This document shows positions 1,797 to 32,716 of a stretch of 64,000 bases of DNA, piece after piece. A program made the position numbers and the translations under genes. This DNA is from a virus. The notes beneath the pieces were generated by a model. It saw nothing but the letters and a program-made list of their open reading frames with translations, had not been told where the DNA came from and ran no database searches. The stretch is taken from positions 15,549 to 79,548 of IMG/VR virus record IMGVR_UViG_3300044769_000253. One strand, written 5' to 3'. Every line of letters begins with the position of its first letter. The stretch's first letter is position 1.

Positions 1797-3445
1797 TGGC
1801 GAACCCGATCAAGATGGGCCACGATCTCTCCCTGCCGATCGACGCCGTGACCGAGAAACTGGCGTGGCTTGGGCGCACGGGTAGCGGCAAGACGTACGGC
1901 GCAAAGCGCATGGTCGAGCAGATGCTTCGAGCGCGAGCTCACGTGATCGTGATCGATCCCGTTGGCACTTGGGCTGGTCTCCGTCTCGGTCCGAAGGCGT
2001 TCGACGTTCCCGTGCTCGGTGGTCTGCACGGAGATATCCCGCTCGAGCCAGGCGCAGGATCCGTTGTCGCCGATCTGGTGGTCGATCGACAGGTGAGCGT
2101 CGTGCTGGACGTAAGCCAGATGATCGACGCAGACCGCACGCGCTTCGCGACCGGTTTCGCAGGGCGCTTCTACCAGCGCCAAAAGGCAGCGCCGCGAGCC
2201 GTGCACGTGGTGCTCGAAGAGTGCCAGGACTTCATCCCGCAAAACCAGCAGCACGGCGAAGAGCGGATGCTTCACGAGTTCCATCGGATCTGCAAGGTCG
2301 GACGTAACTTCGGCATCGGCGTGAGCCTCATCACGCAGCGCCCACAGGAGGTCAGCAAGAAGGCGCTGAACCAAACCGAGTGCGTGTTCGCCTTCCAGAT
2401 GACTGGGCCGCAGGAGCGGAAGGCGCTCGAGTATTGGCTCTCCGACAAGGGCTTCACCGAGAAGCTATCGGACGTTCTACCGCGCCTCGAAGTCGGAGCG
2501 CCACACGTATGGAGCCCGATGTGGCTCAAGTTGTCCAAGGTCGTGCACATCCTGCCGATCGATAGCCTCGACACCTCGCGGACGCCGAAGGTCGGCGCCA
2601 GGGCGTTCACCGCAGCGAAGCTAAGCCCGATCGATCTCGAAAACCTGCGCACGCAGATGGCTGACGCGATCGAACGAGCGCTGGCAGACGACCCGAAGGC
2701 GCTTCGAGCTCGAATCGTGGAGCTGGAGCGGGAGCTGAAGGCTCGGCCCGCGGCTGAGTCGGTTCGCGTCGAGGTACCGCTGCTCGACGAGGCGACCAAG
2801 GCGAGCATGGACGCGCTAGGCGAGGCGATGGGCAGGGTCAGCGCGCAGTTCGAAGCGGTCGTGCTCCGCTTCGGAGATGCCGCCTGGAGGGGCTACCGCG
2901 AGGCAGAGAAGCCCCGCCCCGCGCCGAGGCAGATCCAACCGGCATTCTCTCACCCGCGAGCCCCGACCCCGCGCGAACGGCATCAGGTGGCCCTCTCTCG
3001 CTGCGCCCGTGCGATCCTGGGAGTCGTGGCGCAGCGGGCGCCGGCGCCGACGACGGCAGCGCAGGCCGCAATCCTCAGTGGCTACTCGGTAACGAGCTCG
3101 GGGTTCGCGAACGCGTTGAGCGAGCTCCGGACGAAAGGGCTGATCGAGGGTTCCCGGGACGAGCTCCGCGTCACGACGGCCGGGATCGAGGTGACGGGGC
3201 CGGTCTCGCCTCTTCCGAGCGGGGAGGCTCTCGTGGACTACTGGAAGGGCAAGCTCGGGCGGTGCGAGAGGGAGATATTGCAGGTGCTCGTGGATGCCCG
3301 AGGCGCGCTGCCGAAGTCGGAGATCGCCACGCGAAGCGGCTACTCGGAGACGAGCAGCGGGTTTGCGAACGCGCTGTCGAAGCTGCGAACGCTCCAGCTT
3401 GCCGACGGGTACCAAGAGGTGAGGGCAAGCGAGGTGTTCCGATGA
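1796..3445 (+). CDS. HerA/DUF87-like P-loop ATPase with two C-terminal winged-helix-like repeats
   Basis: Walker A GRTGSGKT, VIDPVG, Walker B VVLEECQ, GRNFGIG..LITQRP; duplicated GYS.TSSGFANALS.LR motif; start ATG 1796 overlaps upstream TGA. Confidence 0.8.
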   Translation: MANPIKMGHDLSLPIDAVTEKLAWLGRTGSGKTYGAKRMVEQMLRARAHVIVIDPVGTWAGLRLGPKAFDVPVLGGLHGDIPLEPGAGSVVADLVVDRQVSVVLDVSQMIDADRTRFATGFAGRFYQRQKAAPRAVHVVLEECQDFIPQNQQHGEERMLHEFHRICKVGRNFGIGVSLITQRPQEVSKKALNQTECVFAFQMTGPQERKALEYWLSDKGFTEKLSDVLPRLEVGAPHVWSPMWLKLSKVVHILPIDSLDTSRTPKVGARAFTAAKLSPIDLENLRTQMADAIERALADDPKALRARIVELERELKARPAAESVRVEVPLLDEATKASMDALGEAMGRVSAQFEAVVLRFGDAAWRGYREAEKPRPAPRQIQPAFSHPRAPTPRERHQVALSRCARAILGVVAQRAPAPTTAAQAAILSGYSVTSSGFANALSELRTKGLIEGSRDELRVTTAGIEVTGPVSPLPSGEALVDYWKGKLGRCEREILQVLVDARGALPKSEIATRSGYSETSSGFANALSKLRTLQLADGYQEVRASEVFR

Positions 3446-19700: not shown

Positions 19701-19746
19701 AGATTCAGCCTTGACGAGAGGTTGCACCAGCAGAAAGAGAAGAAGC

Positions 19747-20991
19747 ATGGAGTACGAAAAGCGAAAATATCAGGAGACTGCAATCGCGGAGGTGCACGTG
19801 AGCATCGCCGCGGGCAAGCGCGCTCCCTGCCTGGTCATGCCGATCGGCAGTGGTAAGACGTACGTTGCGGCTCGCATCGCCAGTAGCGGACGCATTCTGT
19901 GGGTGGCTCCATCACAGGAGCTAGTGCAGCAGGCTGCAGAGGTGACGGTTGGAATGTACGGGATCGACGCCGTCAGCGTGATGATGCCGGGCGGACACTA
20001 CCGCCCGCACGCACGGATCCAGGTTGCAACCGTTGGAACGCTATTGGCGCGTGGGCTGCCAGAGAACGTAGACAAGCTCATACTGGACGAATGCCATCAC
20101 ATGCCGGCCGATGTGTGGCGCAGCATCCCTGACGAGTACAAGAGCTGTTCGCGCATCGGCCTGACTGCGACGCCTGAGCGCTCAGACGGCAAACCGCTCG
20201 GCGACATCTTCGACCATCTGATTGTCGGTGCGCGACGGCAAGACCTCGTCGAGCAGGGCATTCTCGTGCCGTGGGTGATCTACCAATCAGAGCGGCACAT
20301 GGGTCATGATTACGCTGTCGATCCTCTGGCCGCATGGAGGGAGCTGACGAAGCTACTTCCAGACCCGCGGACATTCGCCTACTTTCGGGACGTGTCGGAG
20401 GCCGAGGCTTGGGCGCGCGCGTTTGAGCAAGCTGGCATTCCGTCGGCGTGTATCAGCTGCATGACACCGGACGGGGACAGGACCCAGATCCTGGACGGGT
20501 TGCGACGACGAAACGACTGCCGGCAGATCGATGTGGTGACAAACGTGGGCACGATGGGAGAGGGTGTCGACGTGCCGCCAGTCAGCTGCGTTATCCTGGC
20601 GAGCCAATTCCGCTTTGGTGGCAGGTACGTGCAAGCCTGCGGGCGCGCGGGGCGTTGTTCGCCAGGTAAGGAGTTCGCGCTGCTAATCGACCCAATCGGA
20701 TCGAGTCGGCGACACGGCAACCCCAACGACGATTGGGAGTACTCCCTCGAAGGTCGCGATGGTATGCGCAGAATTCAGATCGTGAATGGACCGAAGGGCG
20801 GGAACGGGCCGCGGGAACGAAGCACGCCGGTGACGGCGGACAATGCCCTCATCCTTTCGGACGCCACTGACTACACCGGTGCCGGCGCTGAGAAGTTCGT
20901 GCGCCGGTATCTGGCGCAGCCCAACGCGCAGCGGCTGGCGAAGGCACAGAGTCGCATCGCGCACACCCTAGCCGGAGGAATGGCGGAATGA
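19747..20991 (+). CDS. SF2 DEAD/DEAH-box helicase (ResIII/UvsW-like)
   Basis: MPIGSGKT, LDECHH, GLTATPER, EGVDVP, QACGRAGR. Confidence 0.85.
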   Translation: MEYEKRKYQETAIAEVHVSIAAGKRAPCLVMPIGSGKTYVAARIASSGRILWVAPSQELVQQAAEVTVGMYGIDAVSVMMPGGHYRPHARIQVATVGTLLARGLPENVDKLILDECHHMPADVWRSIPDEYKSCSRIGLTATPERSDGKPLGDIFDHLIVGARRQDLVEQGILVPWVIYQSERHMGHDYAVDPLAAWRELTKLLPDPRTFAYFRDVSEAEAWARAFEQAGIPSACISCMTPDGDRTQILDGLRRRNDCRQIDVVTNVGTMGEGVDVPPVSCVILASQFRFGGRYVQACGRAGRCSPGKEFALLIDPIGSSRRHGNPNDDWEYSLEGRDGMRRIQIVNGPKGGNGPRERSTPVTADNALILSDATDYTGAGAEKFVRRYLAQPNAQRLAKAQSRIAHTLAGGMAE

Positions 20992-23249
20992 CCACGGAGG
21001 TTTTGAAATACTACGTCCACGAAATCACCGAGGGGAAAGAGTGGGCAGTGTACGTCCGCGACGAACAGGACACCAAGCGCGTGGATCACATGGCGCTCGG
21101 TCATGACTACTACCGCAAGCTCCTGGCCGCGCACGTGTCGGCGCGCGAGGAGTACCGGCGGATTCGCCGCGAAACGCTGCCATCGATCGCTGCGTTGGAG
21201 TCCGAAGTCGCTGGGTTCAATGATCGGTTGGAGGAGATACTGCAGGACATACGGAACGCACGGCGCAAGGCTTCGGCACCTCGTACTGCAGACGGCCCAG
21301 CGCACCCGCAGCGACTGCCCGCGACCGGCGCGCAGCGCGAAGAGATCGAGCGTTTGCGAGATCGGCAGAAGAGCCTCTATGCCGAGTTTAAGGAGCGGCG
21401 AAGCGAGTTCGACGCACTCTTGGCGCCGGCCGCAGCCGAGTACGAGCGCCGCACTACGGGCTGCCCCATCGCGCTCATCGAACAGATTGCGGAACTGGGA
21501 CGCCAACTGAAAGCTGCCAAGAGGACGCGCGACAACCCGGACGTGCCTGCGCTAAAGCGCGCGCTGAGCGACGCGAAAAAACGCAAGAAAGACATCTCAC
21601 CCAAGACGCACGCGAAGCGCCAGGCGAACATGGATACGCTGGGCGAAATGCTGGTCGAGGACTGGCCCGAGCCGTGGAAGGCCGTCATGCGGTCCAGACA
21701 GAAGCGCGACGAGCAATGCAAGAAGCTGCGCGCTGAAAGCGGGCTGACACATGGCACTTACAGCGCCGTCGAGGACGCCGTGAAGACTGCGCTAAAAACG
21801 AGCGAGGGCGACCCGCACGTGAAAGGGTTTCGCGCGCGCAAAATAGGACTGCAGATTCAGAACAAACCACTCAGCGGGGAAGCTTTCAAAGTAGGCAGCG
21901 ACGATCGGCTCCGCATCGTTTCGTGCGAGCGCAGCTTCGGCCGGAGAGATCCGAGCAAACGAGTTGCTCGGCGCGACGATCCGAAGCGCCCGTCGAACCG
22001 GCAGCTACGTCGACACGCGGTCGCACGAATGCGCCTGGCAAAGGATCGGTACGTCAGCATGGCGGTGCTGCTGCACCGAGACATACCAGATGATGCCCGC
22101 ATCACGTGGGCCTACCTCGTCCCGCGCATCGGTGGAGATGGTCGGACGCGCTACTCACTGCAGCTGACGGTGAATCTGAGTCGCCCGATGGTCCAGCGCA
22201 GCCAAGGGGCTGGCGATTGCGTCGTGCGGCTGGGTTGGTCGATGGATCCTGAGGGTGATGGGATCGTTGTCGCACGAGCGAACGGAGAGGCCGTTACAAG
22301 CGGAGCGCGTATTGTCAAGCGCACCGAGATCGTCTCGGATATTCGTGGATGGCGGGACAAGTGGTTCGAGGGCTCGAAAGGCGACCCGGGGCGCGGTGTG
22401 AGAGACGTGCTTGCTCTCTGGATCCAAGAGAACCCGTCTCTTGTTCCCGACTGGATGGTGGAAGCGACATCGGCAAAGTCAGGCGATGACACGCATCGCA
22501 AGCGCGGGTCGCTGCGCCAGTGGAAGAACCATCGCGCGCTCGCCAGGATCGCCAGACGGTGGGTGCAGGAAATTCCTGGGCTGAGGGCCGAAGTGGTCGG
22601 CGAGCAACGGCATGAGCCCAGGGCGTGGCGCGAGAAACGCAGCCGGTGGAGCAATCGGTTTTCCCGCACGCCGCGGACACGGTTGCAGCAACTGTGGGTC
22701 GATTGGTGCCGCACACGCGACGCAATGCGCACCGACTACGAGAACGCCAGCGGCGATTACCACGTGGCGAACCGCGAGGTGCTGAACGCCTGGCTCAGTG
22801 AGCGACACGGCATCACCGACCCCGCCATGCAGATGGCGATCTGGCTCGAATGGTGGCGGCGCAAGGACGCACACCTGGAGCGCTATGCGCGGGAGCTGGA
22901 AATCAAGGCGCGAGCAGAGCGCAAGAACCGGTATCGGTGCGTAGCGGCGAAGTTGTCCCAGCGATATGGCAGGGTGCTGGTCGACAAATTCGACCTGCGG
23001 CAGGCGGCCCGGCACAGCAAAACCGACGAGGAAGCCGACGAACTGAATGAGCGCGCACGCTGGCAGCGGACGGTGGCGAGCCCGAGCGAGTTCATCGAGT
23101 GTCTTCAGGCGGCCTTTGGCCCGGAGCGCTTCAAGGTCCGGAAACGCGAGCGGTCCGGTGACGAGCCGGACCCAGGAGGCGCTCGCGGATCGCCAGGGGA
23201 GCATGAAAACCGCGCGGAAAGTGTTGCCGGATTGGCGGCTGCGGAGTAA
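20988..23249 (+). CDS. cas12m: Cas12m-like (type V-M/V-U1) nuclease-dead CRISPR effector, 753 aa
   Basis: Collinear Cas12m-type motifs recognised from memory: long Arg-rich N-terminal helices, LHRDIPDDARITWAYLV, VVRLGWS (RuvC-I Asp to Arg414), QWKN..LA.IA..W, RY..VAAKLS..YG.VLVD (RuvC-II position, Asp666), R..ASPSEF; no Zn finger or RuvC-III; directly upstream of the array. Confidence 0.8.
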   Translation: MTTEVLKYYVHEITEGKEWAVYVRDEQDTKRVDHMALGHDYYRKLLAAHVSAREEYRRIRRETLPSIAALESEVAGFNDRLEEILQDIRNARRKASAPRTADGPAHPQRLPATGAQREEIERLRDRQKSLYAEFKERRSEFDALLAPAAAEYERRTTGCPIALIEQIAELGRQLKAAKRTRDNPDVPALKRALSDAKKRKKDISPKTHAKRQANMDTLGEMLVEDWPEPWKAVMRSRQKRDEQCKKLRAESGLTHGTYSAVEDAVKTALKTSEGDPHVKGFRARKIGLQIQNKPLSGEAFKVGSDDRLRIVSCERSFGRRDPSKRVARRDDPKRPSNRQLRRHAVARMRLAKDRYVSMAVLLHRDIPDDARITWAYLVPRIGGDGRTRYSLQLTVNLSRPMVQRSQGAGDCVVRLGWSMDPEGDGIVVARANGEAVTSGARIVKRTEIVSDIRGWRDKWFEGSKGDPGRGVRDVLALWIQENPSLVPDWMVEATSAKSGDDTHRKRGSLRQWKNHRALARIARRWVQEIPGLRAEVVGEQRHEPRAWREKRSRWSNRFSRTPRTRLQQLWVDWCRTRDAMRTDYENASGDYHVANREVLNAWLSERHGITDPAMQMAIWLEWWRRKDAHLERYARELEIKARAERKNRYRCVAAKLSQRYGRVLVDKFDLRQAARHSKTDEEADELNERARWQRTVASPSEFIECLQAAFGPERFKVRKRERSGDEPDPGGARGSPGEHENRAESVAGLAAAE

Positions 23250-23335
23250 AACCGGATGGACATCGCGCAGCAAAACCGGAGGCTCTCGCAATATGCGTGG
23301 CATCACCGCGAAAACAGACGCGGAACGGTGGACCT

Positions 23336-23806
23336 GCTCCAATGGCATCGCGACGCCTACGAGATCGCGACTCGACACGTTGACCCGGGTGTCGGAGCGG
23401 ACCGGCGGCTCCAATGGCATCGCGACGCCTACGAGATCGCGACAGCGTGATGACGCCGCCGGCGATCGTCAGCGGCGTGCTCCAATGGCATCGCGACGCA
23501 TTGGAGATCGAGTCACGACGATCCACGGCGGCCTGCCATCAGGGCCTTCGTCGGCTCCAATGGCATCGCGACGCCTACGAGATCGCGACCCTGCGCTGGG
23601 CGCACCAACGAGCGCGACACGCCACGCTCCAATGGCATCGCGACGCCTACGAGATCGCGACAGCGAGGGTCGCTCGAGCAGCATCGAATCCAGGCGCTCG
23701 CTCCAATGGCATCGCGACGCCTACGAGATCGCGACGCGTGGATCTGGAAAAGGCGGCTCCCCTGAGGGATGCTCCAATGGCATCGCGACGCCTACGAGAT
23801 CGCGAC
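23336..23806 (+). CRISPR. CRISPR mini-array: 7 x 36-nt repeats, 6 spacers (36,35,39,36,38,35 nt)
   Basis: GCTCCAATGGCATCGCGACGCCTACGAGATCGCGAC at 23336, 23408, 23479 (5 mismatches), 23554, 23626, 23700, 23771; partial repeat end GAGATCGCGAC at 23815-23825; TCGCGA stem. Confidence 0.97.
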
Positions 23807-23838
23807 CCGAGCCTGAGATCGCGACTAAAGGAAAAAGG

Positions 23839-24185
23839 ATGACAAACGCAACCCAACTGACGGACGTTCCACGCGGCAACCACGACGATCGGGTCTACGA
23901 CGGATTCCTTGATTCGTTCCACCCGTCCGAGCGCCAGTACCACAACTGCAGCGCGTGCCGGCACTTCATTCAGCGGTTCACCCGCGCGCGTCGATGATCG
24001 GCACGCTGCTGGAGGACATTGAGGAGGGACTGGACTTCGGGGACGTGTCACGCAAGTTCGCTAGCAAGATGCATCCACTGCAGTACCAGCGCCCGCAGGC
24101 AGCGCCGTCGGTCGGCAACATCGAAGAGTCGGAGAAGATCGTCGCGAAGCTCAGCACGGGGGAGCCGATGGGCGAAAGGAAGTGA
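23839..24185 (+). pseudogene. deletion remnant of a larger phage protein, two out-of-frame halves
   Basis: ...HNCSACRHFIQRF joined out of frame near 23978 to HPRASMIGTLLEDI...KMHPLQYQRPQAAPS; I recall these as N- and C-terminal parts of one phage protein family. Confidence 0.5.
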
Positions 24186-32302: not shown

Positions 32303-32716
32303 ATGTCAACGAGGCCTTTCGTTTGTCTCGAGGGTGCGATCATCCGCACTCACACCGTTGCGTCGGCCAAGACGGTCGACCAGTACTACCCCGTGAAGCG
32401 CAGCGGCGCTGACGGTGCGGTCGAGAAGATCGCGGCCGTCGGCGACGACGGCATCGGCATTGCGCTCGATGCTGGCGTCGCGGGCGACAAGGTGCGCGTG
32501 GTCTATCCTGGCTGTTGCGTCACGCGCTGCAAGGTCGGCACCGGTGCTGCGACCGAGGGCGCTCCCGCGAAGTACGCGTCCGATGGCCTGACCGACGCAA
32601 CGGTCGGCGGCGGCACGACCAAGTTGGTCGTCTACGGCAAGTTCACCGAGACGGGCGTCGCCGGCGACATCGTCGGGCTCGACCTCGGCGCGTTTTCATT
32701 CACGGTCGGCTCCTGA
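32303..32716 (+). CDS. head decoration/capsid cement-like protein
   Basis: Small Gly/Ala-rich (GIALDAGVAGD, A...GDIV); lies before capsid gene. Confidence 0.6.
   Translation: MSTRPFVCLEGAIIRTHTVASAKTVDQYYPVKRSGADGAVEKIAAVGDDGIGIALDAGVAGDKVRVVYPGCCVTRCKVGTGAATEGAPAKYASDGLTDATVGGGTTKLVVYGKFTETGVAGDIVGLDLGAFSFTVGS

Follow-up and report, generated by a model that had tools for sequence, protein, structure and literature searches.

What are the six spacers of a CRISPR array carried by a prophage directed against, and which protein would use them? The array lies in a stretch of 64,000 nt (hereafter the window), which corresponds to bases 15549-79548 of the 90,778-bp IMG/VR record IMGVR_UViG_3300044769_000253, a record classed as a provirus and estimated to be about 86% complete. 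The TerL of the provirus is nearest to those of Brevundimonas phages (about 50% identical), the flanks of the record are phage-like, and the IS1595 transposase encoded in it shares no more than 64% identity with other copies, most of which come from Alphaproteobacteria MAGs. Comparison of the 8-kb locus to phages and plasmids by megablast returned no match. The features that matter for the question are the following:

19711-20991, + strand: SF2 DNA helicase gene (Pfam and PHROG)
20988-23249, + strand: gene of the Cas12m-like effector P0001, 753 aa (PADLOC, PDB sequence and fold)
23250-23335, + strand: leader, between the effector stop and the first repeat
23336-23806, + strand: CRISPR array, 7 repeats of 36 nt and 6 spacers
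23372-23407, + strand: spacer 1, leader-proximal, 36 nt
23444-23478, + strand: spacer 2, 35 nt
23515-23553, + strand: spacer 3, 39 nt
23590-23625, + strand: spacer 4, 36 nt
23662-23699, + strand: spacer 5, 38 nt
23736-23770, + strand: spacer 6, 35 nt
23815-23825, + strand: truncated terminal repeat GAGATCGCGAC, 11 nt, 8 nt past repeat 7 (read from the sequence)

The array and its six spacers had been reported in a first-pass annotation and are correct letter for letter. The repeat (GCTCCAATGGCATCGCGACGCCTACGAGATCGCGAC, 36 nt) starts at positions 23336, 23408, 23479, 23554, 23626, 23700 and 23771; six of the seven copies are identical, and the third differs at five positions clustered in its 3′ half. 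Near-identical direct repeats of 23-47 nt define a CRISPR array, and here they are separated by spacers of 35-39 nt that are all different and mutually unrelated. Folding of the repeat gives a 6-bp hairpin at the 3′ end (TCGCGA/TCGCGA), separated from the spacer by a single base. In the related repeats of four other loci (L008, L010, L011 and L012) this pairing is kept with changed bases (stems such as CTCGA/TCGAG, GTTGGA/TCCAGC and CGCGG/CCGCG); the related repeats also retain CAAxGG and GCCT, and the final GAC is present in four of five repeats. This layout of a handle followed by a guide is the usual one for type V and therefore points to transcription of the array on the + strand, probably from the leader that follows the gene of the effector. 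A crRNA would then carry a repeat-derived 5′ handle, the 3′ hairpin of which abuts the spacer.

The leader contains the motif C.CTCGCA (23283-23290), some 45-60 nt ahead of the first repeat. In an alignment of leaders the motif is invariant in five loci (the window, L007, L008, L010 and L179), the effectors of which are only 32-45% identical. A sigma-70 scan of the leader gave no consensus site, an Rfam search of the locus gave no family, and a search for the repeat as a degenerate pattern in other IMG/VR or JGI metagenome contigs recovered no other array. As a separate observation, the five clustered changes in the third repeat (23479-23514) do away with the usual 3′ hairpin and let the 5′ end pair with the middle over 8 bp (CUCCAAUG/CAUUGGAG, -10.9 kcal/mol), so that spacer 3, which lies behind this variant, would be left without the normal handle if the predicted fold holds.

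As to targets, the annotation stated that by eye no spacer matches the window fully. The claim is true and extends to the 90,778-bp record, in which the best ungapped matches cover 20-25 of 35-39 nt. Shuffled spacers set against the same record reach 22-24 on average and 25-27 at most, a level that the real spacers equal, and the longest exact match in the record is 14 nt (blastn-short, array masked). Perfect matches in the same phage, which had been named beforehand as speaking against the interpretation, are absent from the sequenced 90.8 kb.

Outside the record, the whole array was compared with 50,697 phage genomes (INPHARED) and 72,556 plasmids (PLSDB) by blastn with a word size of 11, which returned partial matches only (E≥0.01); several of these straddle a repeat-spacer boundary and are hence due to chance. 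IMG/VR was searched with the exact 5′ 18-mers, and the 56 seed hits (1, 33, 3, 13, 0 and 6 for spacers 1 to 6) include none that extends past 27/35. More specifically, (i) spacer 3 gave nothing above chance in any search, (ii) none of the 13 seed hits of spacer 4 extends past 24/36, (iii) spacer 5, with zero seed hits, has no match elsewhere either, and (iv) the best extension among the six seed hits of spacer 6 is 25/35. A seed match of spacer 1 in a viral contig (L013) falls in a portal-like gene and was judged to be chance. Bacterial genomes, about 1,550 in number and drawn from the Alphaproteobacteria, the Pseudomonadota, the Acidobacteriota and the order of a Pseudorhodoplanes MAG, gave no match to the array above the noise floor of about 45-51 bits; a scan of JGI metagenomes with spacer 1 alone yielded no convincing protospacer. 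The absence of targets is thus real for what was searched, but it is an ordinary outcome. Most CRISPR spacers match nothing in the databases, and untargeted spacers are in themselves nothing unusual; the value of this array lies in its setting. The earlier suggestion that coding-like readings of the spacers hint at rival phages finds no backing in these searches, with no match in the phage genomes and IMG/VR seeds that extend no further than chance.

Part of this setting is the effector. The array begins 86 nt downstream of the P0001 gene and runs in the same direction. P0001 has no match in Pfam or NCBIfam, but the PADLOC models Cas12u1 (6e-35) and Cas12f (1e-32) recognize it, and a phmmer search of the PDB retrieves the Cas12m entries 23vw (7e-10), 23vu and 8pm4 (1e-4). 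The AlphaFold model of P0001 (pLDDT 84.8, pTM 0.73) is placed by Foldseek next to Cas12m (8pm4, 7e-17; 8hhl, 2e-16), with the next family at only 7e-05. By sequence and fold, P0001 belongs to the Cas12m/V-U1 family, of which 1,131 representatives were collected at E≤0.001; a profile of the effector clade found no relative in GTDB species genomes by the pattern used.

The catalytic parts of the protein are altered or missing, and homologues agree on this. The HMMER alignment places Arg where RuvC-I has Asp (VVRLGWS versus AIDLGWR) and Asp where RuvC-II has Glu (VLVDKF versus IVLEEF). The protein then stops about 40 residues past the AFGPER helix, with no CxxC, zinc ribbon, RuvC-III or third acid. 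Type V-M is defined by three RuvC positions (D-E-D, H-D-D or N-D-D) and a C-terminal zinc ribbon (TNB), and P0001 has neither. Truncation by a sequencing or frameshift error was considered and rejected, since homologues share the end point and the tail ERSGD..PGxAR..AAE. The same C-terminus is found in two close homologues and in some 25 further clade members (610-756 aa), and in more distant members of the family CxxC..CxxC and DQDxNAA are retained ahead of the same tail. The tail itself, ERSG(G)D..PGxAR....AAE, closes most members of the set P0001-P0070, whether or not they have the zinc ribbon; in P0001 it (residues 721-753) is predicted to be disordered, with pLDDT below 50, and it may serve as a docking peptide.

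Upstream of the effector lies an SF2 helicase gene (Pfam ResIII 8e-22, Helicase_C 6e-09 and DEAD 3e-08; PHROG 16, ‘DNA helicase’, 3e-64), the stop of which shares 4 nt (ATGA) with the start of the effector gene. An SF2 helicase is found directly upstream in every member of the zinc-ribbon-less clade with a complete upstream flank, namely in the window, L007, L010, L179 and L180/L181, with the 4-nt overlap in most of them, and the helicases of the clade are about 39% identical. In the relatives the helicase genes are located as follows:

L007, 2187-3434
L010, 6652-7944
L179, 1241-2497
L180, 3720-4991

Helicase and effector may be functionally linked; the helicase may also be simply the replication helicase of the phage, encoded in an early operon that is conserved. 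No helicase gene adjoins the effector in the phage relatives with a zinc ribbon (L011 and L012). Downstream, an array follows the effector in L008, L010, L179 and L182 (inverted in L182), and the L007 contig ends within a related repeat. The array of L179 (4766-4914) consists of three diverging repeats with spacers of just 19 and 16 nt between them, lengths near the heteroduplex of about 18 bp that Cas12m contacts (PMC11013384).

The conservation of this order bears on the possibility that the array is an inherited relic, its spacers captured long ago elsewhere from targets now extinct or diverged, and that it is carried passively or is decaying. The variant internal repeat and the truncated terminal repeat could represent array decay, and a relic would also fit with the lack of a match in any search, with the refolding of an internal repeat by five clustered changes and with the lack of an adaptation module that would renew the spacers. 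However, six repeats agree over all 36 nt, the effector ORF is unbroken and its product has a confident predicted fold, and both the leader motif and the order helicase-effector-array are conserved among loci with effectors just 32-45% identical. A relic is considered distinctly unlikely.

A different kind of evidence comes from two larger and more distant phage relatives, G406 (124.6 kb) and G407 (321 kb), in which the zinc ribbon is kept and the helicase is absent. Each holds one spacer with a perfect match in its own genome, 36/36 in a small repetitive ORF 11 kb from the array in G406 and 35/35 inside a 404-aa ORF in G407:

L011, 10344-10379: spacer of G406; its match is at L159, 1654-1689 (G406:54153-54188)
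L012, 10614-10648: spacer of G407; its match is at L183, 1162-1196

The wider family thus tolerates perfect self-targets, as would be expected of a binder, and therefore is not used solely against foreign DNA. These matches are also what favors a role of the present spacers in regulating the phage's own genes through sites in its own genome. For the six spacers studied here, however, the best self-matches all stay at the shuffled level and the longest exact match is the 14 nt given above, in a record about 86% complete, which makes self-regulation highly improbable. Among four phage records with related effectors no cross-targeting was detected.

Several further observations were made in the two larger phages. 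The two self-matches, both within ORFs of unknown function, lie on opposite strands relative to the gene, with 5′ flanks GCTCGG and TTTTATC. Solo or degenerate repeats are scattered through both genomes (L011 16316-16350 and G406:106176-106376; about ten dispersed solo repeats in G407, e.g. at 32456, 57887, 72653 and 108140), and one solo copy is located just upstream of a promoter-like hexamer, TTGACA.

No convincing protospacer emerged, and the searches yielded two weak near-hits. The first 22 nt of spacer 1 are found exactly in two soil metagenome contigs (28/36 overall), in the C-terminal dimerization domain of a chromosomal-type ParB (LDTRVNVSMGAKRGKVVIDF); the high-GC3 phase of the spacer reads PVRSDTRVNVS, with R.DTRVNVS as in ParB. 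Spacer 2 has its best match, 32/35 with the first 24 nt exact and spanning exactly the length of the spacer, in the last membrane helix of an EamA/DMT transporter gene of genome G797 (from the order of a Pseudorhodoplanes MAG). The helix TPVQIAGGVITL compares there with the spacer reading TPLTIAGGVITL, at 10/12 residues. In the first-pass annotation the reverse complement of spacer 2 had been read as a fibre-like coding fragment. It does read TPLTIAGGVIT(L), but the fibre-like character is not borne out, as the nearest DNA and peptide are those of the EamA helix. Both near-hits are at noise level: orthologues of the EamA gene match spacer 2 at just 25-26/35, the other five spacers have no match in the G797 genome, and a match of equal score (50.9 bits) straddles repeat 4 and spacer 4, which means that it cannot be a protospacer and arose by chance. 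As to composition, the spacers (219 nt in total) have 69.4% GC versus 64.3% in the window, a difference of about 1.6 standard errors, and in one phase spacers 1 and 2 have a GC3 of 1.00 versus about 0.75-0.85 in the phage genes. This composition shows capture of the spacers from coding DNA with a GC content no lower than that of the phage.

These observations bring in the alternative that the nuclease-dead effector is directed by the spacers to chromosomal genes of the host or to genes of resident plasmids, and that the prophage thereby silences chosen cellular functions. It would account for near-hits that lie in a ParB dimerization domain and an EamA helix, for spacers richer in GC than the phage, and for relatives that tolerate perfect self-targets as a binder should, and there is a precedent in TldR, phage-borne RNA-guided repressors with the same domain losses (bioRxiv 10.1101/2023.11.30.569447). 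Nevertheless, the near-hits stand at noise, as the repeat-straddling match illustrates; the EamA orthologues fall off, no second spacer points to the same genome, the ParB match ends at 22 nt, and the GC difference rests on 219 nt. Regulation of host or plasmid genes is the main rival reading and is judged unlikely. A bolder version, in which a temperate phage silences genes of its host or of co-resident plasmids with a multi-guide array and a stripped Cas12m, with a ParB-type partition gene and an EamA-type transporter as candidate targets and the helicase maybe as a partner, is improbable; if true, it would amount to programmable, array-based phage control over the cell.

How spacers enter the array is constrained by gene content. 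The statement that there are no adaptation genes here holds over the whole 90.8-kb record: Pfam models of Cas1, Cas2 and Cas4 gave no match at E≤1, with control genomes positive. The accompanying proposal that spacers would have to be acquired in trans is sound reasoning, as the element is without an adaptation module, which is typical for V-U1/V-M loci (PMC11013384). Without such a module, new spacers have to come from outside the locus, either through a trans-acting Cas1-Cas2 or through array recombination.

Among known systems, the closest is type V-M, the proteins of which (MmCas12m2, PDB 8HHL/8HIO; GoCas12m, PDB 8PM4) are the best sequence and fold matches to P0001. According to PMC11013384 and PMC10442227, Cas12m proteins with D-E-D, H-D-D or N-D-D sites bind dsDNA beside T- or C-rich PAMs without cutting it, and act against phages and plasmids. 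The present locus resembles V-M in its 36-nt repeats with a stem-loop by the spacer, in the absence of cas1, cas2 and cas4, and in a RuvC site predicted not to be competent to cut DNA, from which silencing by binding would be expected. It differs in that (i) the effector has 753 aa versus about 600, (ii) RuvC-I has Arg versus Asp, His or Asn, (iii) the clade is without the whole zinc-ribbon/RuvC-III segment and (iv) a helicase gene is always directly upstream, in a system carried by a prophage.

Phage carriage as such has been described for MvCas12m of the myxophage MV-1, which a September 2026 preprint presents as the first phage-encoded Cas12m (bioRxiv 10.64898/2026.09.14.751636). There, too, the effector is phage-borne with an adjacent array and no cas1, cas2 or cas4, and its eight spacers have no identifiable protospacer in IMG/VR, IMG/PR or host genomes, just as the searches here gave none for the six spacers. 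Compared by description, MvCas12m has 610 aa and keeps D-E-D, whereas P0001 is without the triad and the zinc ribbon. TldR is likewise a phage-borne RNA-guided DNA binder of the TnpB/Cas12 lineage, and its prophage forms have lost the zinc finger and the RuvC C-terminus (bioRxiv 10.1101/2023.11.30.569447). However, TldR works with a single guide joined to a long scaffold RNA, has no array and represses a known host gene, whereas the locus studied here has a Cas12m-type protein and a CRISPR array of seven repeats and six spacers. Finally, virus-borne mini-CRISPR arrays are also short viral arrays without adaptation genes; their spacers match related viruses, and a role of the arrays in conflicts between viruses has been proposed (PMC6858448). 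Mini-arrays use host Cas proteins and have no effector of their own, while an effector is encoded 86 nt upstream here, and the present spacers, unlike those of mini-arrays, have no viral match in the 50,697 phage genomes, the IMG/VR seeds or three phage records with related effectors.

Taken with these comparisons, the reading preferred here, held with middling confidence, is that the six spacers serve as guides of a binding-only, type V-M-like system, which is carried by the phage and directed against unsampled competing elements. The Cas12m-like protein, charged with a crRNA, would bind guide-matched dsDNA beside a PAM, probably without cutting, and would block transcription or replication. 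The targets would most likely be competing phages or plasmids of the same high-GC host community that lie outside the searched databases, and the element alone would presumably be unable to make new spacers. The reading is supported by a regular array adjoining an intact, co-directional Cas12m-like gene, and by the fact that characterized Cas12m proteins bind without cutting and protect against phages and plasmids (PMC11013384). It is further supported by (i) relatives in which the effector is directly followed by an array of related repeats, mostly in the same direction and with stem pairing preserved, (ii) the invariant leader motif, (iii) the absence of self-targets and of Cas1, Cas2 and Cas4 from the record, (iv) a spacer composition that indicates a GC-rich coding source and (v) the precedent of a phage-borne Cas12m array with eight untargeted spacers (bioRxiv 10.64898/2026.09.14.751636). 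As no protospacer was found in the searches, the class of target is an assumption, and the location of the near-hits in cellular-type genes (ParB and EamA), not in phage genes, speaks against this reading, as do the perfect self-targets of G406 and G407 and the possible signs of array decay.

A phage-borne Cas12m array with untargeted spacers was thus already known. What is new is the zinc-ribbon-less effector clade, its constant helicase neighbor, the conserved leader motif and a copy of the repeat in an integrase gene. The array belongs to a branch of Cas12m that recurs in phages, has lost the final third of its nuclease domain and keeps a fixed order of helicase, effector, leader and array. 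Targets, if found, would show whether phages use binding-only CRISPR systems against rivals or to reprogram their hosts. P0001 itself is predicted to be a naturally nuclease-free RNA-guided DNA binder, with possible use as a tool.

Two minor observations concern the surroundings of the array. Directly after it, at 23840-24185 of the window, a 52-codon ORF is followed by an overlapping 76-codon ORF in a different frame. The latter matches the middle of the 673-position phrog_1735, a PHROG of unknown function (7e-15), and the pair may be a frameshifted or fragmented gene. The second is the repeat copy mentioned above, which lies within the gene for the 519-aa tyrosine integrase of the provirus, in its sense strand (L161 (G000:C1:1-4200), 1838-1878, minus strand), outside the window and about 37 kb to the left of the array. 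It reads ACTCCAAAGGCATCGCGACGCCTACGAGA[CGCCTA]CGCGAC, differs from the array repeat by two substitutions and by 5 nt inserted in the loop, and is 30/36 identical ungapped, which is far beyond chance; it encodes DSKGIATPTRRLRD just ahead of the catalytic domain and uses rare codons. This copy could be a binding site for the effector on the integrase mRNA or a recombination scar.
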